A DNA stretch of 63,488 bases from Nemertoderma westbladi (Eukaryota; Animalia; Xenacoelomorpha), in the NCBI GenBank assembly GCA_032718475.1, contig JAUCBJ010000480.1, forward strand, positions 1 to 63,488, in the 5' to 3' direction. Positions 30,601 through 63,488 of the stretch are shown here, piece after piece (within the stretch, counting starts at the first letter, position 1; every line of letters begins with the position of its first letter). A model generated the notes under the pieces. The model was not told the DNA's origin. It worked only from the letters and a program-made list of their open reading frames with translations, and ran no database searches. A program made the translations under genes and the position numbers.

Positions 30601-30722
30601 TCGCCTGGCGAGGTGGCAGACGCGCCATTGGGCGCGAGTTGGGCGCTGAATCCGGGGGGGACCACGGCGGTGGACGTGGGCACACGTTGGGGGTTGAGTC
30701 CGGGGGGGACCACGGCGGTGGG
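27625..30722 (-). mobile_element. 5'-truncated APE-RT non-LTR retrotransposon with poly(A) tail and 37-bp TSD
   Basis: Poly(T) on + at 27626-27642. Direct repeat GCTTTTTGTTTACATATTGCTGGGGCAACAAACCAGT at 27588-27624 and 30723-30759. Confidence 0.93.
27761..30539 (-). pseudogene. LINE ORF2 (AP endonuclease, RT, C-terminal Cys/His motif), frameshifted near 28700
   Basis: APE motifs LWNVEG, LCTET, GGDFNCR, SVIDLLF, HWP. RT motifs KASGPDGI, NYRGIAL, FVDFTKAFD, GILQGDCFSP, then a frame change to FYADDL. C-terminus CRYCSLPC...HALAC. Confidence 0.9.
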
Positions 30723-30773: not shown

Positions 30774-31701
30774 CACCATGTCCCAGAATAGTGTCGTAAT
30801 TCAGTGACACGCCCCCCCCCCCCCCCCCCCCCTAATTTTTCTACAAATCTTAATGAGATTGCATGAAATTTGAAACAGAGATAGTTTCACCTCCCGACCA
30901 CTGACTGGGTGAGCCAGAATTTTTATTTTTGCTTCCAATCTTTAGCTACATGCATTTAAAAAAATGTCTCCAGCGATATTACACCAGTTACACCGCAGTT
31001 ATTCTTCTACCTTATAGCTGTTTGTTGGTACCAATGGAAAGCTGGCCATGCAAGGATTCCAAATATGTAACACAATTTGAATTTCGTTGAAAAATAGCTG
31101 AGATATGGGCGTTCAAATGTTGCATGGTTTTGCACCTGCGCGAGGCTATTTTATTATATTTAATAAATACATCATAATCTGGAATATTTTGTTTATCCAA
31201 ATACGTAGCTGGGCAACAATGCATTACATCTTTAATCATACTATTACGTAGTTACATTTAAAAGATTTATAGATACATTTAAAAAATGTTCCAGAATATG
31301 GTTTATTTATTAAATAGAATAAAATAGCCCCGCGCCGGTGCATAACCATGCAACATTTGAACGCTCATATCTCAGCTAATTTTCAACGAAATTCAAATTG
31401 TGTTACATATTTGGAATCTTTGCATGACCAGCTTTTCATTGGTACATAAGGTGGCTTTTCATAAGGAGGTAGAAGAATAACTGCGGTGTAACTGGTGTAA
31501 TATCGCTGGAGACACTTTTTTTAAACGCTTGTAGCTAAAGATTGAAAGCAAAAATAAAAATTCTGGCTCACCCAGTCAGTGGTCGGGAGGTGAAACTATC
31601 TCTGTTTCAAATTTCATGCAATCTCATTAAGATATGTATAAAAATTAGGGGGGGGGGGGGGGGTGTCACTGAATTACGACACTATATTCTGGAACATGGT
31701 G
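30774..31701. mobile_element. Palindromic MITE, ~930 bp with ~420-bp arms
   Basis: CACCATGTCCCAGAATAGTGTCGTAATTCAGTGACAC(C)n pairs with (G)nGTGTCACTGAATTACGACACTATATTCTGGAACATGGTG. Confidence 0.9.
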
Positions 31702-33239: not shown

Positions 33240-34567
33240 TAGCCGTAACGCGACAGTAACCGTAACGCGACAGTAACCGTAACGCGACAGTAGCCGTAAC
33301 GCGACAGTGGCCGTAACGCGACAGTAGCCGTAACGCGACAGTAGCCGTAACGCGATAGTAGCCGTAACGCGACAGTAGCCGTAACGCGACAGTAGCCGTA
33401 ACGCGACAGTAGCCGTAACGCGACAGTAGCCGCAACGCGACAGTAGCCGCAACGCGACAGTAGCCGTAACGCGATAGTAGCCGTAACGCGACAGTAGCCG
33501 TAACGCGACAGTAGCCGTAACGCGACAGTAGCCGCAACGCGACAGTAGCCGCAACGCGACAGTAGCCGTAACGCGACAGTAGCCGTAACGCGACAGTAGC
33601 CGTAACGCGAACAGTAGCCGTAACGCGACAGTAGCCGTAACGCGACAGTAGCCGCAACGCGACAGTAGCCGTAACGCGACAGTAGCCGTAACGCGACAGT
33701 AGCCGTAACGGGACAGTGAGCCGTAACGCGACAGTAGCAGTAACGCGACAGTACCGTAACGCGACAGTAGCCGTAACGCGACAGTAGCCGTAACGCGACA
33801 GTAGCCGTAACGCGAACAGTAGCCGTAACGCGACAGTAGCCGTAACGTCAGACAGTAGACGTAACGCGACAGTAGCAGTAAAGCGACAGTGACCGAAACG
33901 CGACAGTAATCCTAACGTCAGTACATACCGTAACGCGACAGTAGCCGTAACGCGACAGTGAGCCGTAACGCGACAGTAGCCGTAACGTGACAGTAACCGT
34001 AACGCGACAGTAGCAGTAAAGGGACAGTGAGCCGAAACGCGACAGTAGCCGTAACGCGTACAGTACCGTAACGCGACAGTAGCCGTAACGCTACAGTAGC
34101 TACGTAACGCGACAGTAGCAGTAAAGGGACAGTGACCGAAACGCGACAGTAATCCTAACGTCAGTAAACATAACGTAACGCGACAGTAGCCGTAACGCGA
34201 CAGTAGACCGTAACGCGACAGTAGCAGTAAAGGGACAGTGACCGAAACGCGACAGTATCCGTAACGCGGACAGTACCGTAACGCGACAGTAGCCGTAACG
34301 CGACAGTACCGTAACGCGACAGTAGCCGTAACGTCGACAGTAGACGTAACGCGACAGTAGCCGTAACGGGACAGTTGACCGTAACGCGACAGTAATCCTA
34401 ACGTCAGTAAACATAACGTAACGCGACAGTAGCAGTAAAGGGACAGTGCCGAAACGCGACAGTAGCAGTAAAGGGACAGTGACCGAAACGCGACAGTAAT
34501 CCTAACGTCAGTAAACATAGCGTAACGCGACAGTAGCCGTAACGCGACAGTGAGCCGTAACGCGACG
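33240..34567 (+). repeat. 17-bp CpG-rich tandem repeat AGCCGTAACGCGACAGT (~75 copies)
   Basis: Direct 17-nt periodicity, degenerating toward the 3' end. Confidence 0.95.
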
Positions 34568-35220: not shown

Positions 35221-37363
35221 TAGGAACCGAGAGGTTCATTACTGTAAGAATTGTTGGCTGATTGACTGGCTGGTTAATCTATAGCCAAAACTACTCTAAC
35301 GATTTTGATGAAATTTTCACAGCGGCTGGATACCGCGATTCTAAGGTCCCTGGTATGTTCCGCTATTTCGTCCATGAGCCGTGGGCTCGAAAAATAGACA
35401 TAAACGAAAAAACGCCATAGGCGCAATGATAAAAACACCAGCTGGCACTCATGAAAAAATGGATAGAGATGGCCTATAGCAATGGTATTCTATAGGAATG
35501 GCCACCTAACAAGGAAATGCTTTCTGTGCCAAGTATTATCCTCACTCTACAACTCAGACACTAAGCAAACATAAGCTGTGGGCTTCTAATGTATTACATC
35601 ATAAGCTGATTGCTCTCCCAATAGCCCTCACACACTCACTGAATCTAATGAAATCGAATATGGATTATCTATTAGCTTAATGCGAATAGCTGGTAAGCTG
35701 AATGCCATTTTAGTTATTGTGAACTGTTGACTGTAGAGTTGACTGCTAGGTTGTATGCATTTAATTAAAATCATTTTCGTAGAGGGAAGTTAATTTGGGA
35801 TTACTCTCTATCTGATGTAAGCAAAGCTGTTCAATCAATGGGGTGGGTCATGGAACCCAAATATAATACATTATGCATGGCAAACATTAATAAAATCATT
35901 CAGTCAACCTGAAGGGTATTTGCTTTAGTTAACTACTGTGTGAAAAGCGAATTTATAATGTTACCAATACTTCAGGTGAATGAATTTTTAGATATTTGTA
36001 CTGGAGGCAAGGATTTCTGATATAATTAAATATATATTTCGATATTATGTAGTTGCGCCCTTCTAGCAGCACGTGAGATAATCAAGTAATAGACACAATG
36101 TTTGACTTTGTCCCTTCAAGCAGCACGTGAGTTTTGCTTTGACCCTTCGATATATGTATTTGCGCCCTTCGAGCAGCACGTGAATTACATCAAATAATAG
36201 ACACATTGTTTGACTTTGTCCCTTCGAGCAGCACGTGAGTTTTGCTTTGACCCTTCGATATATGTATTTGCGCCCTTCGAGCAGCACGGGGAGTCGACTC
36301 AGACCGAGCCGAGCCCAGCCGAGCCGAGCCGAGCCGAGACGAGCCGAACCGAGCCGAGCCGAGCCGAGCCGAGCCGAGCCGAGCCGAGCCGAGCAGAGCC
36401 GAGCCGGCCGAGCCGAGCCGAGCCGAGCCAAGCCGAGCCGAGCCGAACCGAGCCGAGTCGTGCCGAACCGAGCCGTGCCGAGCCGAGCCGAGCCAAGCCG
36501 AGCCGTGCCGAGCCGAGCCGAGCCGAGCCGAGCCGAGCCGAGCCGAGCCGAGCCGAACCGAACCGAACCGAGCCGAGCCGAGCCGAGCCGAGCCGAACCG
36601 AGCCGAGCCGAGCCGAGCCGAGCCGAACCGAACCGAACCGAGCCGAGCCGAGCCGAGCCGAGCCGAGCCGAGCCGAGCCGAGCCGAGCCGAGCCGAGCCG
36701 AGCCGAGCCGAACCGAGCCGTGCCGAACCGTGCCGAGCCGAGCCGAGCCGAGCCGAGCCGAGCCGAGCCGAGCCGAGCCGAGCCGAGCCGAACCGAACCG
36801 AACCGAACCGAGCCGAGCCGAGCCGAGCCGAGCCGAGCCGAGCCGAGCCGAGCCGAGCCGAGCCGAGCCGAGCCGAGCCGAGCCGAGCCGAGCCGAGCCG
36901 AGCCGAACCGAACCGAACCGAACCGAGCCGAGCCGAGCCGAGCCGAGCCGAGCCGAGCCGAGCCGAGCCGAGCCGAGCCGAGCCGAACCGAGCCGTGCCG
37001 AACCGAGCCGTGCCGAGCCGAGCCGAGCCGAGCCGAGCCGAGCCGAGCCGAACCGAGCCGAGCCGAGCCGAGCCGAGCCGAGCCGAACCGAACCGAACCG
37101 AACCGAGCCGAGCCGAGCCGAGCCGAGCCGAGCCGAGCCGAGCCGAGCCGAGCCGAGCCGAGCCGAGCCGAGCCGAGCCGAACCAAACCGAGCCGAGCCG
37201 AGCCGAGCCGAGCCGAGCCGAACCGAACCGAACCAAACCAAACCGAACCGAGCCGAGACGAGCCGAGCCGAGCCGAATCGTGCAAGACCGAGCCGAGCTC
37301 GTTGTCTCTTTTATTTGAAATAAAAAGTCGGTTCCTTATCGGGCCGCTAGGCCTGTCACTAGT
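35221..37363 (+). mobile_element. Non-autonomous Helentron/Helitron2-type element (HINE/DINE-1-like), copy A
   Basis: 5' subTIR AGGAACCGA with hairpin GAACC-gaga-GGTTC, a (GGCT/GACT)n microsatellite and a gattttgatgaaattttcac block. 3' subTIR TCGGTTCCT, GC hairpin and CTAGT. Confidence 0.85.
36303..37297 (+). repeat. (GAGCC/GAACC)n pentanucleotide microsatellite, ~1 kb, inside HINE copy A
   Basis: Direct 5-nt periodicity. Confidence 0.97.
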
Positions 37364-43643: not shown

Positions 43644-46600
43644 GGGGAGGGTATACCATAATTTGACAAAATTGTCGAAAAACTTTTTATTGGCTGATTA
43701 AGAGCAGAATTTAATGCTGAATCCAGTGCTAAAATCCGTTTTCACTAATTCGAAGTAGTTTTTGAGATATACCCCAAAAACCAAACAAAAGTCGGAACCG
43801 CATCCACTAAACACACTGCAATAGTATGCCGTTCGACATAAATTGAATTTTGTTCAAGAGACATTGTAAACAAAAATAATGAAGCTGCGGCGGTTACAAG
43901 AGGTGCCCTGCCCTTGTAACAGCAATCACAAGTGGAGGTAAATTTGAAGTATAGAAATTGTACAGGCAGACAGGCGATGATGTGTACATACAGTAACAGC
44001 CCAGTCAGAATACCATGTACTGTACTCGTTTCCTGTTTCTTCATTCACAGCTTTACAATCAGACCATACCATTGAAGAAATATCTCTGGTACCGGTTCCT
44101 TCAAGTTAGTTATTCATTATGGCAGTAACAACAAACCTATCTAGGTCTATTACAGTGCCGGTACCCATACTGGTATGCTTTTTATTCTAATCACACCTGA
44201 ATTGTACCGGCACCGTACCCTAATCATTGCTCGGGTTCCTGTGGGTCTCGTACCCGTCACTCCTTATAACTGTTCGGCCTACTACCGGTGATTACTGTAT
44301 ATCTACTAACCTGACTGTTTTGGTGCACGATGATTCCATTGGATTTGGGGTTAGGGTTAGTATGGCTGGTCCGTAACCCACCCTAATTGGAGGATCTGGT
44401 TTTGGCCCATGACAAGGGGGCCCCAGGGCCAGGGCCCCCTGTCATGGGCCAAAACCAGATTAAAAATTTTGTCCTGACGGGCACCAAACCCACAAATACC
44501 ATTCAGCCATTGCTCGTACTGGCACCTTAGCTAAACTAATTGTATGCCCAGTGCCCACTGTTCAACTGGTAGGCTACTACAAGTTTAGACTGGCAGCATG
44601 TACCTGTACGTACCGGTACAGATAGAAAATCTTTTATTTTGTGGGCATAATAAATTGAAAATTGAGTTGATTTTACAAATATTTCCTTCCTATTTTATTT
44701 TTATCAATACTTTGCCTAATCAATACTAATATTATGCCGACCCCAGGGAAGAGTAAGAAGGTATTTTGTGCCAAACAGTTTGGACGTTCTGAATCTGGCA
44801 AATGGATTTCCTTGTCTTCAGATATCACTGACCTGTTGCCGGATATACCTGAAGATATACCGGTACCAATTTCTGAAAATAAAATAAAATTGGCAACAGA
44901 TGACACTTTACCAGTAGCACAGGAAAGAGATGAAAAACTAGTCACAGGATACAGAATCATACATTGTGACAATTTGTTATCCATTATAAAAGCTGCCCAT
45001 AATTGTGAAGAGACATCTAAGCAGCTAGCTGACAAGTGCAATGGAGTTGACAGTGTAATTCATTACAGCTGCTCGAAGTGTGATTTCGATTATAAACTTC
45101 AGTGTTCCCGTAATGGTACAGGTATATATAACTCAAAAAAGTCTAAAGACCTAAATCTTCGTTTGGCTTTTGGAGCTACAGAATTTGGTGGTGATCTTGA
45201 ATCGTTGTACACGCTATCAACTGCACTTGACATACCAATAAGCATGCATCAGGCCAGTTTTTCGAAATATATCAATGATCTTACAGACATCAGCACAGAG
45301 CTTGTTGGTGAAGACATGACTTCAGCGAGGAAAGAAATCAGAAGATCTGATGAATTGCCTGTTGAAACTGCAGTTTCATTTGATGGTTCATGGGCCAAGA
45401 GGGGTCACACATCGGATTATGGCTATGGTGCAGTAATCTCTATGGAGTCTGGCAAAGTGCTTGATTATGGGTTCCGTACCAAGGTCTGCAATCAGGTTAC
45501 TTTCAATCCCCTGAACAAGCAATCTAAGGATTATAAAGTATGGCTTGAGAGCCATACTAAAGATTGCTCAACATGTCAAACAATTCATACAGGATCAAGT
45601 GGTTCAATGGAGGCCAGTATTGGCATTGAGTTGTTTAGTCGTTCAAACTCTGGTCTGATGGGTGTAAATCATGGATTGATGTTCAAGGAACTGATATGTG
45701 ATGGAGACAGCTCAACATATAAGAATGTTTGGAATGTCTATGGAGCCTGTGATAGCTGTGAGAAGTATGAGCCTATGACAAAAGCTCAAAAAGAGGAATT
45801 CGACAGTTCAGATAGGGGAAAGGAACATTGGTCTCAACACTCCGATAGTACTGTCGATTGCAACAGAGTAAATAAACTGGATTGCATAAACCATGTGCAG
45901 AAGCGCCTCCATAAAGCCCTTCGAGATGTTAGAGAGAACAACAAAGGCAAACTCTCTGATGGCAAGTTTGTTGGAGGCTCCAAACATAGACTTACTCTCC
46001 CAACTTGTGAACGTCTATCAAGATATTATGGCAATGCTATTAGAAAGAATGTGGATGCTACAGCAAAAACTCCAGAAGAAAAAGAGCGATGTCTCTGGAA
46101 GATGAAAAGGGACATTCTCGCAACAATCGTTCATAGCATTATGCTGCCAAAACCTGAAGTACGCCACAAATATTGTGACAAAGGAGAATCTACTTTTTGC
46201 AAGTTTCAGGCAGGTAAAAAATTCACAGACAAACCTCACCACCTCGATCCTGTGTTTCTACCACTGCTACTTCCAGTCTATAGACGACTCTCAGATCCAC
46301 TTCTCCTTCAGCGATGCTTACCGGGATATACCCAGAACCAGAGTGAGTCTCTGAATGGCGCAGTGTGGAGTAGAGCTCCTAAACATAAATTTCATGGCCA
46401 TAAACGCATAAAACTAGCCATCAACAGTGCCATATTGAGTTTCAACAATGGAGCATCTGGTAGATTGAAAATTCTAAACAAAATATCTCAGAATGACCTG
46501 ACCAGCAACACCCATAGTCGACGAAGTATCGATCGCAAGAACCGCAAGCGCGTTAGCTATGCCAGGTACCAAGGGAAGAAGAAGAGGGAGCGTATGCATA

Positions 46601-47326
46601 AGAAGATTGCCCGAGCCAAGAAAGAAGAAGTAGCCTTACTAGAAGAAGCAGGACCATCATACATCAGTGGAGGATTTGACTGACAGAACACTTTCATTAT
46701 AATATTACTTACTTGGTTGTATTTGTTGCAGTTTATCGGTTGTACAGTCTATTCATTTGTGCATAAAACTTTAATGCTTGATTACCGCTAATTGTAATTT
46801 CGATGGAACGGAATAACTAAAATGCCCATCAGATTGCCAATTCTTCATGAAATCATCTGAAATTTGGCCAGAACATCCAGAAATATGCCTTCTGGAAAAT
46901 TGTCGGTCAAAATTTCCATATCTTTTCGTATGTTAAAGTTTTGATACATTTTGTAAAAAATGAATGCAATTTTATCGCGGAGTGCCAGTTTCTCTCATTT
47001 GAATGGCCCTGGTTTCGTTTTAGGGCTGAAATTGAGAATTCTGACCGACAATTTTTCAGAGGAGGTCTAAAGGATGTTTCCTAAACAGTTATCAGCAAAA
47101 ATCATGTTGGTCTTCAAAATTGATCATCAATTTGGGAAATCACACCATTTTCGACACTTATATTTGTCTGCTAATGGACCTGGTTGAATCTGGGTGTCAG
47201 TGCATGTTTCATATTAACCCAAATCATATACGAAATGCTCATACCAAATTTCAAGTAAATTCATCAACCTGATCCAGAGTTATGGCACTTTTGGTCTTCG
47301 GAGTCCGATTATGGTATACCCTCCCC
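43644..47326 (+). mobile_element. Complete Kolobok-type (TTAA-target) DNA transposon, 3,683 bp
   Basis: Perfect 19-bp TIRs GGGGAGGGTATACCATAAT (43644-43662 and 47308-47326), TTAA on both sides (43640-43643, 47327-47330), and an internal intact transposase ORF. Confidence 0.9.
44734..46683 (+). CDS. DDE transposase (Mutator-like-domain/Kolobok-Hydra type), 649 aa
   Basis: Motifs VSFDGSWAKRGHTS, ICDGDSSTY, KLDCINHVQKR, TQNQSESLNGAVW and C-terminal YISGGF. The ORF is intact between the TIRs. Confidence 0.88.
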   Translation: MPTPGKSKKVFCAKQFGRSESGKWISLSSDITDLLPDIPEDIPVPISENKIKLATDDTLPVAQERDEKLVTGYRIIHCDNLLSIIKAAHNCEETSKQLADKCNGVDSVIHYSCSKCDFDYKLQCSRNGTGIYNSKKSKDLNLRLAFGATEFGGDLESLYTLSTALDIPISMHQASFSKYINDLTDISTELVGEDMTSARKEIRRSDELPVETAVSFDGSWAKRGHTSDYGYGAVISMESGKVLDYGFRTKVCNQVTFNPLNKQSKDYKVWLESHTKDCSTCQTIHTGSSGSMEASIGIELFSRSNSGLMGVNHGLMFKELICDGDSSTYKNVWNVYGACDSCEKYEPMTKAQKEEFDSSDRGKEHWSQHSDSTVDCNRVNKLDCINHVQKRLHKALRDVRENNKGKLSDGKFVGGSKHRLTLPTCERLSRYYGNAIRKNVDATAKTPEEKERCLWKMKRDILATIVHSIMLPKPEVRHKYCDKGESTFCKFQAGKKFTDKPHHLDPVFLPLLLPVYRRLSDPLLLQRCLPGYTQNQSESLNGAVWSRAPKHKFHGHKRIKLAINSAILSFNNGASGRLKILNKISQNDLTSNTHSRRSIDRKNRKRVSYARYQGKKKRERMHKKIARAKKEEVALLEEAGPSYISGGFD

Positions 47327-51130: not shown

Positions 51131-53119
51131 GTGGAGTTGGGGACGGGAGTTGGGAGTGGGACGGAAGTTGGGAATGGGACGGGAGTTAGGATTGTGGTGG
51201 AAGTTGGGAATGGGACGGGAGTTGGGAGTGGGACGGAAGTTGGGAATGGGACGGGAGTTGGGAGTGTAGTGGAAGTTGGGAATGGGACGGGAGTTGGGAG
51301 TGGGAGGGAGTTGGGAGTGGGACGGAAGTTGGGAATGGGACGGGAGTTGGGAGTATGGTGGAAGTTGGGAATGCGACGGGAGTTGGGAGTGGGACAGGAG
51401 TTGGGAGTGGGACGGAAGTTAGGAATGGGACGGGAGTTGGGAGTGTGGTGGAAGTTGGGAATGGGACGGGAGTTGGGAGTGGGACGGGAGTTGGGAGTGG
51501 GACGGAAGTTGGGGATGGGACGGGAGTTGGGAATGGGACGGGAGTTGGGAGTGTGGTGGAAGTTGGGAATGGGACGGGAGTTGGGAGTGTGATGGAAGTT
51601 GGGAATGGGGCGGGAGTTGGGGGTGTGGTGGAAGTTGGGAATGGGGCGGGAGTTGGGAGTGTGGTGGAAGTTGGGAATGGGATGGGAGTTGGGAGTGGGA
51701 CGGAAGTTGGGAGTGGGACGGAAGTTGGGAGTGGGACGGGAGTTGGGAGTGTAGTGGAAGTTGGGAATGGGGCGGGAGTTGGGGGTGTGGTGGAAGTTGG
51801 GAATGGGGCGGGAGTTGGGAGTGTGGTGGAAGTTGGGAATGGGATGGGAGTTGGGAGTGGGACGGAAGTTGGGAGTGGGACGGAAGTTGGGAGTGGGACG
51901 GGAGTTGGGAGTGTAGTGGAAGTTGGGAATGGGACGGGAGTTGGGAGTGTAGTGGAAGTTGGGAATGGGACGGGAGTTGGGAGTGTGGTGGAAGTTGGGA
52001 ATGGGACGGGAGTTGGGAGTGTGATGGAAGTTGGGAATGGGGCGGGAGTTGGGGGTGTGGTGGAAGTTGGGAATGGGGCGGGAGTTGGGAGTGTGGTGGA
52101 AGTTGGGAATGGGATGGGAGTTGGGAGTGGGACGGAAGTTGGGAGTGGGACGGAAGTTGGGAGTGGGACGGGAGTTGGGAGTGTGGTGGAAGTTGGGAAT
52201 GGGACGGGAGTTGGGAGTGTAGTGGAAGTTTGGAATGGGACGGGAGTTGGGAGTGTGGTGGAAGTTGGGAATGGGACGGGAGTTGGGAGTGTAGTGGAAG
52301 TTGGGAATGGGACGGGAGTTGGGAGTGTGGTGGAAGTTGGGAATGGGGCGGGAGTTGGGGGTGTGGTGGAAGTTGGGAATGGGGCGGGAGTTGGGAGTGT
52401 GGTGGAAGTTGGGAATGGGATGGGAGTTGGGAGTGGGACGGAAGTTGGGAGTGGGACGGAAGTTGGGAGTGGGACGGGAGTTGGGAGTGTAGTGGAAGTT
52501 GGGAATGGGACGGGAGTTGGGAGTGTAGTGGAAGTTGGGAATGGGACGGGAGTTGGGAGTGTGGTGGAAGTTGGGAATGGGACGGGAGTTGGGAGTGTGA
52601 TGGAAGTTGGGAATGGGGCGGGAGTTGGGGGTGTGGTGGAAGTTGGGAATGGGGCGGGAGTTGGGAGTGTGGTGGAAGTTGGGAATGGGATGGGAGTTGG
52701 GAGTGGGACGGAAGTTGGGAGTGGGACGGAAGTTGGGAGTGGGACGGGAGTTGGGAGTGTGGTGGAAGTTGGGAATGGGACGGGAGTTGGGAGTGTAGTG
52801 GAAGTTTGGAATGGGACGGGAGTTGGGAGTGTGGTGGAAGTTGGGAATGGGACGGGAGTTGGGAGTGTAGTGGAAGTTGGGAATGGGACGGGAGTTGGGA
52901 GTGTGGTGGAAGTTGGGAATGGGACGGGAGTTGGGAGTGTGGTGGAAGTTGGGAATGTGACGGGAGTTGGGAGTGGGACGGGAGTTGGGATTGGGACAGA
53001 AGTTGGGAGTGTGGTGGAAGTTGGGAATGGGACGGGAGTTGGGAGTGTGGTGGAAGTTGGGAATGGGACGGGAGTTGGGAGTGGGACGGAAGTTGGGAGT
53101 GTGGTGGAAGTTGGGAATG
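51131..53119 (+). repeat. G-rich 18-bp-based minisatellite (GGGACGGGAGTTGGGAGT / GTGGTGGAAGTTGGGAAT), ~2 kb
   Basis: Alternating 18-nt units with extreme G-strand skew. Confidence 0.95.
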
Positions 53120-53231
53120 ATTTTATTATTTTTAATCCTTTCCAGCTAAATACTTGGAAGAGCTCTACACCACACCATAAGCTTCGTATTTGGAAGGAGG
53201 CAGACCACTCTGCAGTTGGATTTTGGATATA

Positions 53232-53440
53232 GGACAATTCGGCCCCGGACAATTGGGACCTGGACAATTCTGACCCGGACAATTCGGACTCGTACAAAAA
53301 ATATTATTTTAAACAATGGGTCCGAATTGTCCAGGTCCTAATTGTCCGGGTCCCAATTGTCCGGGGCCCAATTGCCCTAGGTCCCAATTGTCCAGTTCCA
53401 TTAAGAAACCGGATAATTGGGACCGGGACAATTCTGACCC
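53232..53440. repeat. Short direct and inverted ~16-bp GGACAATT repeat cluster (MITE-like remnant)
   Basis: Four ggacaatt(c/g)gg.cc copies followed by several aattgtcc copies. Confidence 0.6.
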
Positions 53441-54029
53441 ATGCAAAAATATGATTTTAAAATGGGTAAAATGGATTTTAAAATGGTCATAAATTCACCA
53501 GTTGGCCGTTTAGAGGCGAAATTTTTGAAAAGAAAAACCTTCTCCCAATTTATTGTTTAATCCTTTGGAGCTGATATTTTGGCAGATAACTTACAGCATA
53601 ATTCGTATGTTGTAGTAGCATGCCAAGTAGATCTGCCTTTGTTCATTAATAAATTGAAATGTTGAACAAGCTTGTACACTAGAAGGCTTTCTAGTCTATG
53701 AATTAACTATCTGTCTGTAATCAGCTATACGCTCGAACCAAGGTACACCTTGGCTCGAACCCATCTCTATGAAATCTCGCTTACTATAGCTTGTTAGAAA
53801 GGTCTCTGCCTAACTCGTTCCAGCGTAATACCAAGAGCCATCTGAAGTTCTCCTGTCTACCGCTCGAGGGCGAATTAACCGATAGAGATTACCTTATCTA
53901 TGTTAGGATCTTGACTTTCAGAGTAAAAGTTACCGGTGAACGTGTGAAACACCAAACAGTGGAGGCGACCGGAACCGGAAGGCTCCTCTCTCTGTTACGC
54001 TGTTGCCTTTAAGTTTCCGTCGATATTCC

Positions 54030-54836
54030 ACAGGTCGACTGCAGTTATTCTTCAATCTTATAGCGATTCGTTGGTACCGTGCAGTGATTCTAAATACGTA
54101 ATAAGATTTGAATTTCGTTGAGAAATAACTGAGATGGGCATTCGTAAATTTCATGCATTTGCTTCCGCTGCAGACAATTAATTAAAATATTTAATAAAAT
54201 ACACCATATTCTACATCATGTTATTTATGTATGAATACCCTCGTACTAGTAATATTATATAGGCATTACATTTTGTATTTCTTAAAAAGACAAAATGCCT
54301 GCAACGGAAGCAAATGCATGCGACTTTATAAAACGAATATAGCTATTTTGCAATGAAATTCATCAGATTTTATTACACATTATTCACTATGAAGTTGAAG
54401 AATAACTGCGGTGTAAGTGGTTCAATATCGACGGAGACACTTTTTTAAACACTTGTAGCTAAAGAATGAAAGCAAAAATAAAAATTCTGGCTCACCCAGT
54501 AAGTGGTCGGAGCTCGGAGATGTAACTATCTCTGTTTTAAATTTCATGCAATCTCATTACGATTTGTAGAAATATTTTTATTTTGGGTGGGGGGACCAAA
54601 CTACTGAATTATTATTATTATTTTATTTTATTCAAACCATCAAGGTTCATATAATACATACTATATTAAGCATAAATCGCATAAAATATATAAATTATAA
54701 TAAATCTTAAGGGTGTAGTAAATTGTATTAAAATATAATAGGCCTAAATAATGCGCGATTAATTATTTTATAAGTAAGAAGTAAGTCCTATCTATATCGA
54801 ATTTAATTAAGACATTATATTCCAGGGCGTGGTGTA
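54030..54836. mobile_element. Diverged partial copy of the 30774-31701 MITE family (mainly right arm)
   Basis: gaagaataactgcggtgtaa...ttctggctcacccagt...atttcatgcaatctcatta...tatattccagggcgtggtgtaa. Confidence 0.7.
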
Positions 54837-54914
54837 ACAGTTCAATTGCAGTCACCTATCACTGCTTCATTATTCATATACTATTATTATTTATATTTAT
54901 TTTGTTTTAGATTT

Positions 54915-57900
54915 ATGTGTGATACTTGCCAACGGCCGTTTAATTCGGGACGTGGACTTAAAACCCATCAAGTGCGCTCCAAGTTATGCAAAATTCATTC
55001 CTTACGTATTGAAGCTCGGGAGAAAATGCAAAAAAGGCGATTCGATCCTGCTGTGAAATCTACTGAGCGTTTATCAAAAAGTACGAAACGGTTAGATCCT
55101 GAAGTTAGATCGGCTGAACGATTATCAAAACGTACAAAGCGGTTAGATCCTGAAGTTAGATCGGCTGAACGATTATCAAAACGTACGAAACGATTAGATC
55201 CTGCTGTTCGTTTAGCCAACCGGGAATCTATGCGGAAGAAACGGTTAGATCCTGAAGTTAGATCTTCTGAACGATTATCAAAACGTACGCAACGGTTAGA
55301 TCCTGAAGTTAGATCGGCTGAACGATTATCAAAACATACAAAACGGTTAGATCCTGAAGTTAGATCGGCTGAACGATTATCAAAACGTACAAAGCGGTTA
55401 GATCCTGAAGTTAGATCGGTTGAACGATTATCAAAACGTACGAAACGATTAGATCCTGCTGTTCGTTTAGCCAACCGGGAATCTATGCGGAAGAAACGGT
55501 TAGATCCTGAAGTTAGATCTTCTGAACGATTATCAAAACGTACGCAACGGTTGGATCCTGAAGTTAGATTGGCTGAACGATTATCAAAACATACGAAACG
55601 GTTAGATCCTGAAGTTAGATCTTCTGAACGATTATCAAAACGTACGCAACGGTTGGATCCTGAAGTTAGATTGGCTGAACGATTATCAAAACGTACGAAA
55701 CGATTAGATCCTGCTGTTCGTTTAGCCAACCGGGAATCTATGCGGAAGAAACGGTTAGATCCTGAAGTTAGATCTTCTGAACGATTATCAAAACGTACGC
55801 AACGGTTGGATCCTGAAGTTAGATTGGCTGAACGATTATCAAAACATACGAAACGGTTAGATCCTGAAGTTAGATCGGCTGAACGATTATCAAAACATAC
55901 AAAACGGTTAGATCCTGAAGTTAGATCGGCTGAACGATTATCAAAACGTACAAAACGGTTAGATCCTGAAGTTAGATCGGCTGAACGATTATCAAAACGT
56001 ACAAAACGGTTAGATCCTGAAGTTAGATCGGCTGAACGATTATCAAAACGTACAAAGCGGTTAGATCCTGAAGTTAGATCGGCTGAACGATTATCAAAAC
56101 GTACGAAACGATTAGATCCTGCTGTTCGTTTAGCCAACCGGGAATCTATGCGTAAGAAGCGGTTAGATCCTGTGGTGAGATCAGCTGAACGAATTAAAGC
56201 TTACTATGCACGTGTACGTTTCAGACAACCGAACGCATCTCCATTGGTGCAATGTCAAAAGGATGGCATCTCCAGTGCGTCCGCTTCTATATCTGATTGT
56301 AGTGTATCCAATAAAGTGAAGAAGAAAAATATAGCTGGTTCCTCCTTAATTCCTTCTCCTGCGTCCTGGACTGATAGAATGAAATTTTCAGAAAAGTGCC
56401 AATTTTTCTGCAAACTGGAGGGTGAAGTTAATAAATTAAAGAATTCTCTAAACAATTGGGGAATACCTCGAGACGATGAAATAATAAATATTCAACTTCA
56501 GAATGTGGATCCGAATGAAAATGAATGTGGCGTTTTTGAGGATGTTATTCTTCCTGAGGCACAGCAACAATCAAACCAAATGCAAATTCCATTATGGCCT
56601 TGGGATCAGCGGCCCAGAGATCATACTAAATTTTTGAATGATGCTGAGCAAAAGGAAGTTGATAAAATAAGGTCCCAAGATTCACGATATGTACAATACG
56701 TTATGAGAAAGGCTGTTGAGGACTGGTCTACTGGTTGGAAATTAAAACATTGTACAACTTGTTGTGAAATATATCTAGAGTTAAATTATGACTCATCTAA
56801 ATTTAAAGAATGTAAACGGTGCCAAGCTAATTCTAGGAGAGCACGCAGTAAGAAGACTTCTAGTGTGAGGGATATTGCTCTAAGTACAACTGAACCAGCA
56901 GCAACATTTCAAGCCAATGTCGGGAAGCTTCCACTTTGCACACCAGCTGAACGTTGCCTTATAGCAAAACAACAGGCATTTACAAGTATAATGTTTAATT
57001 ATAACCGTAGACAAGTATTTGGAAGCCATTGTTTAGTTGTTGGCCATAAAATTCGAAATACACTGAATCATGTTTTACCTCATCTCGAACATTCATGTGA
57101 TGTTTTAATAATGTCTGAAAGGATGGATGGCTCGAGTTTTCGGAAACTTCCAGTGCGGTCAGATGTTGTCAAATCCTGGACAACTCATCTCTTGAACAAT
57201 AGAGAAGGATACAAAGATATATTCACCATTAATCATGATTTATTAGAAACACTGAGTGTTCAGTGTACAGATGACATCGTGAATACTATTGATGTTGCCC
57301 CAGCAGCAGTTAGAGCAGTCCAAGATGATATGTATGCCCAGTCAGACGCTTCACAGCATAGCATGTATCGACTTAATGAAAGTTTAGGTGGTTATTTGCA
57401 GACGAGTGTCCGACAGGCTATGGAGAGTGAGTTGGTAGGTTCCCCGATTAAGATAAATCTCAGGAATATGTGGGACGGAAAGTTGTCATCTTTTCATTGG
57501 AAACTGGAGGAGCAATTTCCAGATTTACATTCTGATGGCCAGCATTCATTAACATCTATTATGTATAGGGAAGATGATGATGGACATGTGAAATTTGCTG
57601 GAATCAATGTTCACAAGCAAGCACTAGCTCACCAGTTGCGATATGCAGTATTTGGCAATGATGGTAAGCTAAGATGGCCATATGCTGAAGATCCTGTTTA
57701 TGCTTTTGTTGCTTATGACCAAATGCATTTAGCATATTCCTTGGACAGTATACAGTTTTATCTCAACACACAAAATGAACTTGATGAAGTTAATGTCAAA
57801 ACACTATTAGATAAATTTAAAATGGGCAATCCTGAAACCGTTGCACCGATGCTTATTGCCCATCTAAGACGATATCCCCATTCCGCCCAACGGTGGAAAC

Positions 57901-60900
57901 ATATGAGGCAAGAGTTATATTCTGTTTGTACCAACTCAGGGTTTCCAAATGTGTTTATCACATTCAATAATAATCTGCGAACAGATTATGGTGTGAGGCG
58001 GCTGGTATTTTTATCAGAATATGGCTTGGATGCTGTATTTCAACACTCTTGGTTTGAAATAAATCGAAAGGTTTGGGATAAATTGCTTGATAAACACGCA
58101 GCAATTATAGAGCAATACCTCCGTTTAAAAATGGAGATTATGACCAATGCATTCTTCAGAAAAGTTTGCAGCATCAATTCAAGAGACAGTTGGCATTGGG
58201 GAAGAGTAGAATGGGGTCCAACACGTGCTGTACAGCATTGGCACTTTCTTGCTAGGTTACCTCACATATTCGAATTAATTCTACTGGCTCATTTAATTCA
58301 TAGAATGCGAACTGTAAGAAAATATTGGTTGCAAGGAAGAATGACTGAAGAATTTAGGAGTGAGGCAATACATATTGTTAATACTGGTTATCTTGCTGAA
58401 AGATACATGACGGAAGTGTATGATAGCCTGATTCAAACTGATTTTTGTGATGATAATGGAGATTTGATCGATTTATATAAACTGCTGAAAGATTGGAATG
58501 AACTTCCTGATGACACAAAGTATACTCCTCAAAATCATCCCCTGATGAGAGATACAGTTAATACTTTAGAACACTGCAATTCAGAAAACAAGGAGAGTGC
58601 ATTGCTTGCCGCAATAGTGCAAATGCATAATTGCTATCCTGAGACATGTGGTGGAAATGTAAAAGGGGATGGTTGTCGACATGGCGGTATTAAGCCTAGA
58701 AGAGATATTACAAGAGTTGGATTTGCAAAGACAACAGAGTCAATGTTATTTACAGAATGTCATGTGTTGACAAAACGTCGACACAAATCATTTACTCGCC
58801 TTAATAATGTTAATAGAATTCTACAGCTGTATTGGCGTGCAAATAGTGATCTCACTGTTATAAGTTGTCCATTTGCATTGCTACGTTATACCCTCAAATA
58901 TGTCTCCAAATGCACAAGTATGCTTTCTTGTGTTGATGATGCTGTAGTAAAATTAATGGAGGTTGTAGAAAGCGAACCAGATATTTCTATCCAAAGTGTG
59001 GTTAAGAGACTAACTATTGCCCATGTTTTCAATCCGAAAGATATGTCGAGACGGGAGTTGATGTTTCATGCCCTTGGCTTGAGTGATGTCATTAAATGCA
59101 TGCCACGTATTGTCCCATTAAAGTGTTCTAGTGGTGCACCTATTTTATGCCAAATAACTCCATCAGTGAACAATCCATCTGAAGATGTAGCAACTAATGA
59201 AGAAGATGAACCTATAGTGAATGTTGAACAAGCTGATACGAATGAAATTACAAACTTTCAGGTAAAAAAATTGTTTATATTGCCTCCGAAATCGTCAGTG
59301 ACAGCATATGTCAAACGGTGTTCAGATGATTGGCCAGGTGGTCTCATCCCTTCTGATAAAATTACGTATTTCGAATTTCTGTCGCTGGTGGATTTCAAGC
59401 CTCACACTGAGCAATCTAAATTTACGTATAAAGGAATTAAAGATACCAGAATCCCACATTTCATTCCACATTTAATCACCGGACGTCCTGAATCCCTTTT
59501 ATTTGACGATAGTCTCACGTGGAACACCATTGATAACCATTTTAAAAATTTGCTACAAAATGTCAGATTAGAATGTATCGCATTTATCCCATTTTCTGGT
59601 AATGTTAGTGATTACTTTATATCAGAGAATTTGCAACAACAAATATCCAATGGTGAGAAAGATATAATTCTAATTTATAAGGCATTTCATAATAAATGGA
59701 TGGAATTACTTCACCACAGGAGTATAAATGGAACATTTGATGACCCTTGTTTTCGATTTCGTGTCTTTCAAAATACATATGGGTGTGAAATGGATCATAA
59801 AAAGGCAATGTACAAAATAAGATCCGAGTTAAATTGTATTCCCATAGAAGAGCCAGATGGAACTGGAGAAACTATTGATATTGTAGACGAACCTTTGATT
59901 GATTTAAATGTAGAATCACTTTCTATTGATTGTATACTTAGTGATGCATTTGATTTTGATGCATATATGGATCCATATCGAATTTTGAGTTCTGCCATAG
60001 AAGAACTAGATGACAGAAATGCAGATTCGTTTTTAACAATTAATTTGCAATCCCCCTTGTATTCCCAAATTCAACAAAAGTGGAAATTGCTTTGTAAATC
60101 ATCAAAGACATTTAAAGGTGGACCTAAGATTCCCATAAATTTCAATGATTTGCCTAAATTGGATGATACTCAACAACTTGTTGTCAATTTGATGATTAAT
60201 GACACTATCAATAACAAGCCTACACCTCAGACAATATTTTTACATGGACCTGGTGGTTCTGGTAAAACCGAAGTAATAAAGAGAATTTATTATCATCTTG
60301 GTGAAAAGGTCTTGTTATTAGGTATCAGTGGAGCTGCTGCTGCAAATTTGTATTGCGCAACACTTGAAGGTTTTTTTGGCTTGTATAACAACAAGACTCA
60401 ATGGGATCAGAATACCGACAAGGTAACTTCACGTCAAACTCTCATTGTGAAATATGTTCAAAGTGTTGATTTTGTCATAGTAGATGAAATTTCTATGTGC
60501 CAACCAGGAACATTAGCGTTGTTGGACTCATCATTACGCCATGCCAGTGGTAATCCAGACATTCTGTGGGGCGGCAAAAAGCTTCTACTGGTAGGAGATA
60601 TGGGACAACTCCCACCTGTTTCATCACGCCAACTGTGGAATGCACCCTCGCAATCTGAAGTTGTTTCCCCTGGTGCTAGAATTCGGCTTAGAAATCGTCA
60701 AGGTAAAGCTCATTCGTTATATGGTCATCAATTATATGCCTCTCATATGCGTCCGAATGTTATCTGCTTAAGGAAAGTTTACAGGTCTGATGATGAGCTA
60801 GCTAAACTAACCAGTCGTATTAGGAATGGGGAGCAAGATGAAATAGACTACAGGACGGTTTTTCATTCAATAAATGAACTTGGTAACACACCAAGCATGG

Positions 60901-63281
60901 CGACGCTGGGGGAGCTTCCAGTTTGTATAATGTATGACAATGTTACGAGAATGCTTAATAATGCCAAATTATCAGTTGATCAGATTTGTTCACTTGATCA
61001 AACATTATTCATTTCCAAGTCGATATATAATGCAACTTTCACCAATCTAAATAGATTGAGCCCATCAGAATTTGATGTAATGTTGGAGGACTGTATTCCA
61101 TTATATGTTGGCCTGAAAATTATATTTGTTGATAATGTCAGTGTCCAAAGGCGCATAGCCAATGGTACCCAAGGAACTGTGATACACATCGTTTTTAATG
61201 AAAGTGATGCTGCTGCTGTGTTGAATGGTGAACATCCCCAACCAGACCATGTCATTGTTGACATTCCAGATTTCAATGAGGAGGGTATATCTGATTGCGA
61301 GTTTCCTTTAAATCCTACATTTGTCCGAATATTCCCAATATCTGCAAGACTCACAGGTAAAAAGAGACGGCGATTTGCAGAAAGAATAAGTCGAACGCAG
61401 TTCCCCTTTGTGCCACTTCACGCAATCACAGTACACAAATGCCAAGGAAAAGAATACCGTGAGAAACCAGTTTATGTTAATCTAAATGCAGATAAATTAG
61501 TACAAACAAACATATCACTGTTGAGCCAACTTGTTCAGGTAGCATTTACTCGTGCCGATAGCTGCCGTAACCTCTTTGCGGAGCCATTCTCTCTGGAGAC
61601 ATTTTTGAAGTTGAGTAATTCTAAAATGGACATTAAACGTCGTGCTGAGGAATCTGTTTTATCAGTTAATAGTGATAAGTTCATTGTAACGTTTGGAATT
61701 GATAATATTATTGAAAGGTTTGGAATTTATGTTAGGTCTACTAACGCAATTAGTCCTGGTAGTAGTTCCTACACAATCCGTTCCATTGGTATTGATCCTG
61801 GTGTCGTAAATATGGCAATAGCTGTATGGCATTGTGAACAACGAAAGGCTCCAATGTTGGTCTACTGTGTAAAATGTAAGCTTTCAGAACATGTTGATAA
61901 ATTTACTTCAGAGTCTACACTGATTGAGGTGTTATTACAATCTCATCCTTCACTTTCTGGAATACTTCTTGACAACAAGTCCACAGATAATCCATTCTTG
62001 CCAATATGCAATGAACTCTCAATAGCAGTAGAGCAGTTTCCCGACCATGCAAGTTTGCGTTGGATGACTAAGCGGTTAGTTGATGGTTTGCGAACCTATT
62101 TGGATAATGTATCACCATTCAGTCTTAAAGATTCCTCATTGAGAGTATTCCATAGTTCTGGATTTTTACTACACGCTACCAGAGGTCCATTAGTTTATTT
62201 ACCGAAAATTATCCAGTATTTGGGAATTTCCTTATATGTGCGACGACCGACATATCATGATACTTTTGAAGGTGTTGATGAACAGGAAGCAGCAAGAAGG
62301 CAAGACAGAATACAAAGAAAGAAGCAAACAGCAGTTCTTGCACGGTCATTATTAACGGGACGAACATTACAATATAGTCAAGAGATAACTGTATCAAAAG
62401 AAGTAATTACTTTATTTAAAGATACGGATTTATCAAAGGCAGATGATTATGGTGATGCCATGATACACGGATTATATAGACCTTATTTTCGTAGTGAACA
62501 TTGTACAGATTCAGCGCATATTGTTGAAATTACAAAACGGCAAACACTTTTCATGCTTGGTGTAATACGCATAATAGTTCTCAGTCCAGGTCCGAAGTTC
62601 ACCATAGTTACAGCAATGAAATGGAGACCAAATGCTAAGACTGCAATCGAACGTTTTTTTCTGGTTAATTCTCCATATAACCAATTTGTTGATGACTTAT
62701 CAACTTCTGCTGTAAATTTATCTCAATCAGCGCCTTTGGATCAACGATTGGAAGCTTGGCGCAAAACATTTCCAGATGGCTTCCTTCAACATTCAATGTC
62801 TTGTGAAAAATCCGAACTTTTCGCATTTGAAGAAACAAAATTTGTTCTCTTTCTGTGCCGGAACATTCACCAACATCATGTTTACCAGAGATTTATCCAA
62901 AAAGATATGGTAGAATTATTCTCTAAATCAATACCAGATAATTGCCATTATAAAACATTTAATGGGTTATCAAACATTTGGCGAATGATTGGTGGTACAG
63001 AACCGTACATCCATCAAGCATGGGATGTTTTACCGGAAGTCATTTCGAAAATACATGGATATACTTTAATTGATGAAAAGGTAACCGACTCCTTCCAAGT
63101 TCTTCTCGACAATTCTGATTTTCATTATTTTGAATTTACAGAAAGAGCTGTAAGCGATCTTAAAGATTTTATATCTAATAATTTACAAAAACGTCTAATT
63201 GAATCACTACTTTTCGGCACTTATTATCTAAAGAAACAGAAACACTCGAAACATAAATTGAAGAAAGTTAATTCAAACTAG
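54915..63281 (+). CDS. Helitron-like (Helitron2/Helentron-type) Rep-Pif1 helicase with C-terminal RuvC-like resolvase domain, ~2,790 aa
   Basis: Frame open 54846-63281; ATG at 54915 follows an acceptor-like ttttag, so an upstream exon is possible. N-terminal CxxC..H zinc finger and 17-aa repeats. Rep motifs GFPNVFITF, VEW...QHWH (HUH, 58236) and YTLKYVSK (58887). Pif1 motifs GPGGSGKT (60246), IVDEISM, VGDMGQLPPV, NGTQG, RTQFP..AITVHKCQG, VAFTRA. C-terminal GIDPG..E..DDYGD. Confidence 0.92.
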   Translation: MCDTCQRPFNSGRGLKTHQVRSKLCKIHSLRIEAREKMQKRRFDPAVKSTERLSKSTKRLDPEVRSAERLSKRTKRLDPEVRSAERLSKRTKRLDPAVRLANRESMRKKRLDPEVRSSERLSKRTQRLDPEVRSAERLSKHTKRLDPEVRSAERLSKRTKRLDPEVRSVERLSKRTKRLDPAVRLANRESMRKKRLDPEVRSSERLSKRTQRLDPEVRLAERLSKHTKRLDPEVRSSERLSKRTQRLDPEVRLAERLSKRTKRLDPAVRLANRESMRKKRLDPEVRSSERLSKRTQRLDPEVRLAERLSKHTKRLDPEVRSAERLSKHTKRLDPEVRSAERLSKRTKRLDPEVRSAERLSKRTKRLDPEVRSAERLSKRTKRLDPEVRSAERLSKRTKRLDPAVRLANRESMRKKRLDPVVRSAERIKAYYARVRFRQPNASPLVQCQKDGISSASASISDCSVSNKVKKKNIAGSSLIPSPASWTDRMKFSEKCQFFCKLEGEVNKLKNSLNNWGIPRDDEIINIQLQNVDPNENECGVFEDVILPEAQQQSNQMQIPLWPWDQRPRDHTKFLNDAEQKEVDKIRSQDSRYVQYVMRKAVEDWSTGWKLKHCTTCCEIYLELNYDSSKFKECKRCQANSRRARSKKTSSVRDIALSTTEPAATFQANVGKLPLCTPAERCLIAKQQAFTSIMFNYNRRQVFGSHCLVVGHKIRNTLNHVLPHLEHSCDVLIMSERMDGSSFRKLPVRSDVVKSWTTHLLNNREGYKDIFTINHDLLETLSVQCTDDIVNTIDVAPAAVRAVQDDMYAQSDASQHSMYRLNESLGGYLQTSVRQAMESELVGSPIKINLRNMWDGKLSSFHWKLEEQFPDLHSDGQHSLTSIMYREDDDGHVKFAGINVHKQALAHQLRYAVFGNDGKLRWPYAEDPVYAFVAYDQMHLAYSLDSIQFYLNTQNELDEVNVKTLLDKFKMGNPETVAPMLIAHLRRYPHSAQRWKHMRQELYSVCTNSGFPNVFITFNNNLRTDYGVRRLVFLSEYGLDAVFQHSWFEINRKVWDKLLDKHAAIIEQYLRLKMEIMTNAFFRKVCSINSRDSWHWGRVEWGPTRAVQHWHFLARLPHIFELILLAHLIHRMRTVRKYWLQGRMTEEFRSEAIHIVNTGYLAERYMTEVYDSLIQTDFCDDNGDLIDLYKLLKDWNELPDDTKYTPQNHPLMRDTVNTLEHCNSENKESALLAAIVQMHNCYPETCGGNVKGDGCRHGGIKPRRDITRVGFAKTTESMLFTECHVLTKRRHKSFTRLNNVNRILQLYWRANSDLTVISCPFALLRYTLKYVSKCTSMLSCVDDAVVKLMEVVESEPDISIQSVVKRLTIAHVFNPKDMSRRELMFHALGLSDVIKCMPRIVPLKCSSGAPILCQITPSVNNPSEDVATNEEDEPIVNVEQADTNEITNFQVKKLFILPPKSSVTAYVKRCSDDWPGGLIPSDKITYFEFLSLVDFKPHTEQSKFTYKGIKDTRIPHFIPHLITGRPESLLFDDSLTWNTIDNHFKNLLQNVRLECIAFIPFSGNVSDYFISENLQQQISNGEKDIILIYKAFHNKWMELLHHRSINGTFDDPCFRFRVFQNTYGCEMDHKKAMYKIRSELNCIPIEEPDGTGETIDIVDEPLIDLNVESLSIDCILSDAFDFDAYMDPYRILSSAIEELDDRNADSFLTINLQSPLYSQIQQKWKLLCKSSKTFKGGPKIPINFNDLPKLDDTQQLVVNLMINDTINNKPTPQTIFLHGPGGSGKTEVIKRIYYHLGEKVLLLGISGAAAANLYCATLEGFFGLYNNKTQWDQNTDKVTSRQTLIVKYVQSVDFVIVDEISMCQPGTLALLDSSLRHASGNPDILWGGKKLLLVGDMGQLPPVSSRQLWNAPSQSEVVSPGARIRLRNRQGKAHSLYGHQLYASHMRPNVICLRKVYRSDDELAKLTSRIRNGEQDEIDYRTVFHSINELGNTPSMATLGELPVCIMYDNVTRMLNNAKLSVDQICSLDQTLFISKSIYNATFTNLNRLSPSEFDVMLEDCIPLYVGLKIIFVDNVSVQRRIANGTQGTVIHIVFNESDAAAVLNGEHPQPDHVIVDIPDFNEEGISDCEFPLNPTFVRIFPISARLTGKKRRRFAERISRTQFPFVPLHAITVHKCQGKEYREKPVYVNLNADKLVQTNISLLSQLVQVAFTRADSCRNLFAEPFSLETFLKLSNSKMDIKRRAEESVLSVNSDKFIVTFGIDNIIERFGIYVRSTNAISPGSSSYTIRSIGIDPGVVNMAIAVWHCEQRKAPMLVYCVKCKLSEHVDKFTSESTLIEVLLQSHPSLSGILLDNKSTDNPFLPICNELSIAVEQFPDHASLRWMTKRLVDGLRTYLDNVSPFSLKDSSLRVFHSSGFLLHATRGPLVYLPKIIQYLGISLYVRRPTYHDTFEGVDEQEAARRQDRIQRKKQTAVLARSLLTGRTLQYSQEITVSKEVITLFKDTDLSKADDYGDAMIHGLYRPYFRSEHCTDSAHIVEITKRQTLFMLGVIRIIVLSPGPKFTIVTAMKWRPNAKTAIERFFLVNSPYNQFVDDLSTSAVNLSQSAPLDQRLEAWRKTFPDGFLQHSMSCEKSELFAFEETKFVLFLCRNIHQHHVYQRFIQKDMVELFSKSIPDNCHYKTFNGLSNIWRMIGGTEPYIHQAWDVLPEVISKIHGYTLIDEKVTDSFQVLLDNSDFHYFEFTERAVSDLKDFISNNLQKRLIESLLFGTYYLKKQKHSKHKLKKVNSN
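55035..56195 (+). repeat. Coding 51-bp tandem repeat (KRLDPEVRSAERLSKRT, ~22 copies) in the Helitron ORF
   Basis: In-frame 17-aa units with a periodic AVRLANRESMRK variant. Confidence 0.95.
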
Positions 63282-63488
63282 ACGGCATATTCATCAATGT
63301 AAACTCAAATATTATCGTGATGGCTGAATCCCGTCTTGTTGTCTTGACTTCCGAACACGAAAATGTAGTTAATCTAAAATCTCGAATCACCATTCGGCAC
63401 CACAGCCTTCTAGGGTTGTTCATACTACTCTTTGGCATTGCAATGCCAAATCACTGCTGCTGTACCATACGTGCCACCCGGAGACACA

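Follow-up and report, generated by a model that had tools for sequence, protein, structure and literature searches.

A Helitron-like Rep-Pif1 transposase from Nemertoderma westbladi that ends in two tandem resolvase-fold domains, one predicted to be active and one predicted to be dead

During the transposition of Helitrons, the Rep domain of the transposase nicks and joins one DNA strand through a tyrosine, the Pif1 helicase unwinds the DNA, and circles form and are reinserted. For Helraiser, a plus strand that is peeled off, the formation of circles and the use of double-stranded intermediates have been described (PMC5876387). The closest described systems to the element reported here are the Helentrons and the HLE2 elements, in which one open reading frame (ORF) encodes zinc-finger-like motifs, a Rep domain with HUH and Y2 motifs, a Pif1 helicase and a C-terminal nuclease (PMC4067079, PMC11417382), with DUF6570 upstream of Rep as a marker of HLE2 (PMC11417382). 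The nuclease of Helentrons is the APE endonuclease, for which a nicking role has been hypothesised (PMC4067079), and a GIY-YIG domain occurs in one HLE2 family (PMC11417382); the role of such accessory nucleases in Helitron-like transposases is stated to be unknown (PMC8788227, PMC4067079). Here we describe an ORF from Nemertoderma westbladi (GenBank assembly GCA_032718475.1, contig JAUCBJ010000480.1), located in a stretch of 63,488 nucleotides that is referred to below as the window and to which all positions refer. This ORF shares the layout of the Helentrons and HLE2 elements, including a near-threshold DUF6570 match, but its nuclease is of the RuvC/A22 type instead of APE, and two resolvase folds are present. 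These are the features that carry the finding:

54915..63281, + strand: Rep-Pif1 transposase of Helitron-like type, ending in two tandem resolvase-fold domains (ORF and motif analysis)
61770..62489, + strand: D1, an A22/Ydc2-type RuvC-family nuclease domain, predicted to be active (motifs, ESM Atlas, Foldseek, conservation)
62553..63254, + strand: D2, a second Ydc2/TEFM/A22-like fold, predicted to be catalytically dead (whole-tail model, structure search)

The frame of 8.4 kb is unbroken, encoding 2,788 amino acids from 54915 to 63281 on the plus strand with a single stop at its end (63281), as the first-pass annotation of this stretch had stated. That annotation had also noted that the ORF continues for about 600 amino acids after the last Pif1 motif; the continuation was found, with a length of 574 amino acids behind the motif VAFTRA. 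Pfam gave nothing convincing over the last 570 amino acids of the ORF.

The fusion is real and conserved. When D1 (query 61764-62510) was searched against 1.84 billion protein representatives, three proteins were recovered (P0002 to P0004, 43-57% identity), all from contigs of 1-2 kb; one of them, P0002, starts at the helix that closes Pif1 and continues through D1 and D2. The Rep-Pif1 region, used as a query among 5,156 candidates, recovered two more proteins. P0005 (1,783 amino acids, from an ENA contig of 7,651 bases) contains Rep, Pif1, D1 and D2 in one frame and is 40% identical over 1,793 columns, and P0006 is a protein of the fungus Hypsizygus that has DUF6570, Helitron_like_N and PIF1 and lacks the resolvase tail. 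When the tail served as query in a word-seeded search of proteins of 1,533-4,879 amino acids, 0 of 5,056 candidates matched, although P0005 falls in this range; such searches miss true members, because P0005 emerged only later through Rep-Pif1. Alignment of the tail among 7,883 candidates recovered P0002 alone. Locus scans of metagenome contigs, viral contigs, prokaryote genomes and phages confirmed no relative, the three viral-contig scans being ones that need exact short patterns.

The absence of the tail from P0006, one of the two full-length matches, might suggest that the assembly produced a chimera, or that two neighbouring genes are read through by chance. This explanation is refuted by the identical domain order in P0005 at 40% identity and by contigs of the same organism from another study that cross the Pif1-D1-D2 junction without gaps; the similar GC content at third codon positions in all domains (0.26-0.31) also speaks against it. 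A contig of run X2 spans 59928-63388 with 1 difference, and a contig of X3 from that study spans 58079-63183 with 5 differences. Among the run contigs, the 11 ORF differences listed comprise 5 synonymous and 6 missense changes and 0 stops, and 17 further entries fall outside this count. The contig depth over the ORF compared with that over the left flank was 86-120 against 70 in X1, 108-162 against 71-78 in X2 and 290-420 against 6-15 in X3; these depths are not copy numbers. In run X4 no contig covers 56150-62799, and both ends of the ORF are present at approximately 99% identity. This hints at a derivative with an internal deletion, but as no more than a lead, no contig joining the two ends being found among those listed.

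D1 carries the acidic residues D2294 (61794), E2373 (62031), D2511 (62445) and D2514 (62454). The first two were already placed correctly in the first-pass annotation. Its third position, 62442, is indeed an aspartate, but it is the first of the DD pair in KADDYGDAM (62436-62462), and the catalytic pair is assigned to 62445 and 62454 because the spacing then follows K129-D132-D135 of the fowlpox resolvase (PMC6962361). Catalysis by that enzyme is attributed to D7, E60, D132 and D135, with N12, Q62 and K129 also required for cleavage (PMC6962361). The same local arrangement is present in D1, where the first aspartate is followed by asparagine at +5 (as in D7/N12), the glutamate is in place, and the last two aspartates are spaced D-x2-D with lysine at -3; Q62 (E+2) has no counterpart. 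All 4 sequences that extend over these positions conserve the D, N and E, and all five members of the family have K-x-D-D-x-G-D-A. The ordered A22-like pattern did not occur in any of 20,000 shuffled tail sequences, a significance that is overstated since the pattern was written post hoc, and the conservation of the acidic residues is the stronger evidence. Compared with P0005, D1 is as well conserved (46.8% identity) as Pif1 (46.7%) and Rep (43.6%), with D2 at 28.3%; 67 of the 240 columns of D1 are invariant, and 30 of 234 in D2.

Both D1 and D2 were modelled, at moderate confidence, with the RNase H-like order of three strands, helix, strand, helix and strand, and the top structural matches of both are all RNase H-like. 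In the ESM Atlas, the first three clusters for D1 were Pox_A22/Ydc2 (PF04848/PF09159), more than 90% viral and from Nucleocytoviricota, with a score of 0.90 and 173 of 256 features. In a Foldseek search of viral models, ranks 2, 4 and 7 were taken by Holliday junction resolvases from Pithovirus and medusavirus (E 6e-5 to 2e-4). The A22/Ydc2 type and RNase H fold proposed in the first-pass annotation are therefore supported by the Atlas, the structure search and Foldseek, and D1 is very probably a nuclease of the A22/Ydc2 type on which selection for catalysis acts.

The likeness of D1 to the resolvases of poxviruses and other nucleocytoplasmic large DNA viruses (fowlpox Fpr, PDB 6p7a/6p7b; PF04848) consists of the asparagine at D+5, the glutamate that closes strand 4, the K-x2-D-x2-D motif and the RNase H-like fold, and these enzymes are its top neighbours in the Atlas and among the viral Foldseek models. 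The differences are that A22 is a free homodimer of approximately 150 amino acids, whereas D1 has approximately 240, is fused to a transposase and is followed by a predicted dead fold, and that the motifs are more widely spaced in D1 (77-87 residues from D to E compared with 53, and 130-135 from E to K compared with 69). A match at the sequence level is undetectable. The nearest look-alikes of D1 are found in Nucleocytoviricota, and the domain may have been captured from a large DNA virus, as the first-pass annotation proposed, but it has no such match to A22.

D2 is the second fold of the tail and was found in all five members. Of 48,161 solved chains, those that matched it best in structure were the mitochondrial resolvase Ydc2 (Z 10.7, root-mean-square deviation (rmsd) 4.8, 191 residues aligned) and TEFM (Z 10.1, rmsd 4.1, 172 residues); the next matches, terminase nucleases and kinases, had Z of 8.9 or less. 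A follow-up comparison with the fowlpox resolvase gave Z 9.7 and rmsd 3.6 with 138 of 149 residues aligned. Ydc2/Cce1 and TEFM differ in being stand-alone mitochondrial proteins, whereas D2 lies in cis behind a predicted active D1. Strand 1 ends with D-P-G in D1 but with S-P-G in the D2 of all five members, and strand 4, which ends with E in D1, ends with R/K-N in the D2 of all five; in the present protein these are serine at 62583 for the aspartate and arginine at 62859 for the glutamate. The acidic tetrad is thus incomplete, and with its first aspartate and its glutamate lost, D2 is predicted to be catalytically dead. A known example of a resolvase fold that lacks the activity of a resolvase is TEFM (PMC3105396).

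The poxvirus resolvase is described as a homodimer that cuts bulges, Y junctions and four-way junctions (PMC6962361). Since enzymes of the RuvC/A22 type bind branched DNA as dimers, D2 would supply the partner subunit in cis and one active site would be left. We consider it about an even chance (roughly 0.5) that D1 and D2 fold together as a pseudo-dimer of an active and a dead subunit, which nicks one strand of a branched rolling-circle intermediate. If this is the case, then D1 and D2 would pack onto each other within the molecule, the preferred substrate would be the looped heteroduplex or flap that remains after single-strand insertion, and D1 would nick the opposite strand at that branch. 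Fill-in synthesis from this nick would then fix the insertion on both strands. A shared nicking job is suggested by the unrelated nucleases, APE and GIY-YIG, that fill the same slot in other Helitron-like elements.

Several observations weigh against this reading. An Atlas score of 0.90 is also attained by 4-10 in 100 shuffled proteins, the Foldseek TM-scores of D1 to the viral resolvases are only 0.27-0.36, and against solved structures D1 appears as a generic RNase H-like domain (CoaX Z 9.2, terminase 8.2, Ydc2 6.2). The D1 model has a mean predicted local distance difference test (pLDDT) score of 60.1, falling below 50 in the catalytic last helix, and the two-domain tail model has a mean pLDDT of 50.9 and a predicted template modelling score of 0.39. 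Neither domain gave a HMMER or phmmer match to Pox_A22, Ydc2 or RuvC, sequence searches of Pfam, PHROGs, NCBIfam and PDB gave no resolvase match for either, and D2 had no usable match in the ESM Atlas. The catalytic positions of D2 were assigned by the order of secondary structure elements and not by residue-level superposition, and three invariant acids are retained in this domain (D389, E433 and E488, P0001 numbering). No similarity between D1 and D2 was detected at the sequence level (HHalign probability 0.4%), so that an origin of the pair by duplication is not supported. The family set has only five members, and the ends of the element were not found.

A second explanation is true Holliday junction resolution, in which the D1 domains of two transposases form a dimer whose paired cuts open cruciforms, the junctions of concatemers or circles that are interlinked, with D2 binding DNA or protein only. 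The complete A22 acidic set of D1 would serve such a reaction; A22 resolves the concatemer junctions of poxviruses (PMC6962361), and head-to-tail junctions and tandem arrays of Helitrons exist (PMC5876387). The mriyaviruses, as described in PMC10962738, also combine an HUH endonuclease, a helicase and an A22-like RuvC resolvase within one rolling-circle replicon, although these are capsid-encoding viruses in which the proteins are separate genes and the helicase is of SF2/SF3 and not Pif1. Symmetric resolution is nevertheless possible rather than probable, because a second resolvase fold in cis, kept in 5 of 5 members, would be expected to lie on the dimer surface, and because the Helraiser transposase of solved structure has been described as a monomer. 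The observation made in the first-pass annotation is confirmed and its interpretation is partly supported: the resolvase domain it proposed for resolving cruciforms or concatemers is D1, but it overlooked D2, whose predicted loss of activity favours a one-sided nick.

The position of D1 in the protein is that of APE in Helentrons (PMC4067079, PMC8788227), and D1 might instead initiate transposition by nicking plain duplex on the target or donor flank, the role hypothesised for that endonuclease, without requiring a branch. Enzymes of the RuvC/A22 family are described as branch-specific (PMC6962361), which makes this use of the domain unlikely. APE itself (Exo_endo_phos) was not detected in the ORF by the Pfam scan that did detect it in a long interspersed element (LINE) of the window, so the ORF lacks the nuclease that marks a Helentron.

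Literature that pairs Helitrons with RuvC mostly concerns Fanzor/TnpB, and Fanzors are RuvC-fold nucleases that travel with Helitrons (PMC3627910, PMC10530073), including Helitron2; RuvC domains of Cas9 and Cas12 are also among the fold matches of the tail (Z 6-8). An RNA-guided nuclease of this type is very unlikely here and is largely refuted by the motif test, since the pattern D-x(125,275)-[TS][TS]-x-x-C4-x(5,50)-RD, as defined in PMC3627910, is absent from 5 of 5 proteins, whose last motif is K-x-D-D-x-G-D-A, and since the ESM Atlas indicates Pox_A22/Ydc2. Fanzors are further described as differing by their C4 zinc finger, their RD motif and RNA guidance, and as having a multi-exon gene of their own in non-autonomous elements (PMC3627910). 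Rfam over 53000-63488 found nothing 3′ of the ORF, a result with little bearing on a guide RNA because the window contains only 207 bases past the stop.

The remaining features of the ORF, in which the HUH, Y2 and Walker A/B motifs reported by the first-pass annotation were all located by motif search, together with the acidic set, are as follows:

54881..54910, + strand: T-rich tract with an AG end four bases 5′ of the ATG (AG to 54910; sequence)
54918..54989, + strand: N-terminal C-x2-C-x12-H-x6-C motif, a probable zinc finger (pattern search)
55063..56121, + strand: basic tandem repeat of a 51-bp (17-amino-acid) unit, approximately 21 copies, in frame (repeat analysis)
56928..57224, + strand: DUF6570-like region (Pfam, E 5.5e-5; 24.1 bits, just below the cut-off of 24.3)
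57738..58250, + strand: Helitron_like_N/Rep domain including the HUH motif (Pfam, E 6.5e-8)
58197-58244, + strand: Rep HUH motif WGRVEWGPTRAVQHWH, with HWH at 58236-58244
58887..58910, + strand: Rep Y2 motif YTLKYVSK (Y-x3-Y-x2-K), present in P0005 too (motif search)
60159..61556, + strand: Pif1-family SF1B helicase with Walker A/B and later motifs (Pfam PIF1, E 9.7e-17)
60246-60269, + strand: Walker A (motif search)
60477-60497, + strand: Walker B (motif search)
Ending at 61556, + strand: final Pif1 motif VAFTRA (motif search)

The frame is open from 54846 and its first ATG is at 54915. The T-rich tract that precedes it is likely a splice acceptor, and a leader exon may lie upstream; the match of an X4 contig to the window begins only at 54909, the other 570 of its 773 letters being unmatched there. 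The Rep has the histidine pair and the tyrosine pair of a RepHel protein, and both HWH and the Y2 motif are kept in P0005. The region behind it matches Pif1 structures, including that of Helraiser (7lcc, E 2.3e-7). Compared with HLE2 motif 2, (V/I)ExQxRGSPHxH after aromatic-x-R, the lead-in fits loosely (W-G-R-V-E here and W-S-R-V-E in P0005), and the body is one residue longer (8 compared with 7 residues from E to H) and lacks Q-x-R-G-S-P.

This deviation of the HUH motif from the Helitron/Helentron consensus, the Nucleocytoviricota origin of the closest look-alikes of D1, and the lack of termini or a second copy in the window would fit an ORF that, instead of being an active transposase, is left over from a rolling-circle virus or a plasmid-like element, or has become a host gene by domestication, with Rep, helicase and resolvase serving replication or repair. 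We regard this as quite unlikely. The combination of Helitron_like_N, PIF1 and a near-threshold DUF6570 is the HLE2 layout, the sole named relative is the fungal protein with these three domains, Pfam assigned the other long ORFs that it identified in the window to transposon proteins and none to a viral family, and the three viral-contig scans, with their need for exact patterns, confirmed no relative. Its protein sequence marks the ORF as coding for the transposase of a divergent member of the Helitron-like elements.

The status as a transposon rests on the protein because the termini are not established. No left end of the TC...CTRR/hairpin or asymmetric terminal-inverted-repeat type was recognised within the window, the right end lies beyond it, and no second copy of the ORF was found in it. 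Contigs of X1, X3 and X4 run 1,184-1,188 bases beyond the window and all stop at one place, which is possibly the right end or else a repeat. One candidate for the left end, a dispersed repeat of approximately 190 bp at 54383-54576, was rejected, as its three other copies in the window (31458-31646, 30834-31017 and 26745-26910; 83-86% identical) have no adjoining RepHel. This repeat, part of which forms an inverted repeat with 54038-54066, reaches a very high summed depth of contigs in each of the four runs and is possibly a non-autonomous element.

The window as a whole is repeat-rich eukaryotic DNA with BEL/Pao, LINE and Mutator-like ORFs and satellites. An unbroken BEL/Pao retrotransposon polyprotein of the long-terminal-repeat class is encoded at 1855-8733 on the plus strand (2,292 amino acids; Peptidase_A17, DUF1759, DUF5641 and an integrase zinc domain), a LINE with APE endonuclease and reverse transcriptase occupies two overlapping frames at 27761-30713 on the minus strand, and a Mutator-like transposase ORF of 649 amino acids lies at 44734-46683 on the plus strand (PF20700, E 1.2e-38). 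Satellite arrays within 11953-20538, 33240-34566 and 36304-37276 have units of 20 bp (x105), 51 bp (x40), 22 bp (x121), 17 bp (x77) and CCGAG (x195). Nearer to the ORF, a G-rich repeat of GGGAGT-like hexamers covers approximately 2 kb (51140-53119, GC skew approximately 0.5) and ends 1.8 kb 5′ of it, and a foldback of inverted 15-bp units follows at 53222-53442 (68-nt arms, 87% complementary), with two sub-threshold miRNA-like hairpins in Rfam at 53242-53367. A perfect 20-bp palindrome (63431-63450) lies 150 bases 3′ of the stop codon.

The first-pass annotation knew of no described fusion of this kind, and the literature searched likewise contains no description of a RepHel-resolvase fusion, with Repbase, Dfam and the 2015 review of Thomas and Pritham lying outside that search. 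The HELIANO survey reports 20 captured domains in 404 genomes (PMC11417382). None of those named in its main text is a resolvase, and resolvase, RuvC and RNase H go unmentioned there, although Table S11 may be outside that coverage (PMC11417382). The survey would miss D1 because it used Pfam at E 1e-3 (PMC11417382), and more generally Pfam-based surveys of Helitrons would overlook this domain, which is invisible to HMMER.

We suggest tentatively, at somewhat less than even odds, that a lineage of rolling-circle transposons adopted a resolvase of the type found in large DNA viruses and made it into a single-chain pseudo-dimer with one active site, a branch-specific nickase that completes the element's own insertions. 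The finding connects rolling-circle transposons of eukaryotes with the resolvases that large DNA viruses carry, and the pairing of an intact with a dead resolvase fold suggests a way in which an enzyme that depends on dimerisation can work within one transposase chain. The role of accessory nucleases in Helitron-like transposases is now testable, as the substrate preference of D1 would indicate which intermediate needs to be cut. If the proposal is true, D1 would be a third independent nuclease fold, beside APE and GIY-YIG, that serves a so far unrecognised step on the second strand in Helitron transposition, and the tandem would be a natural single-chain nickase of the RuvC family.

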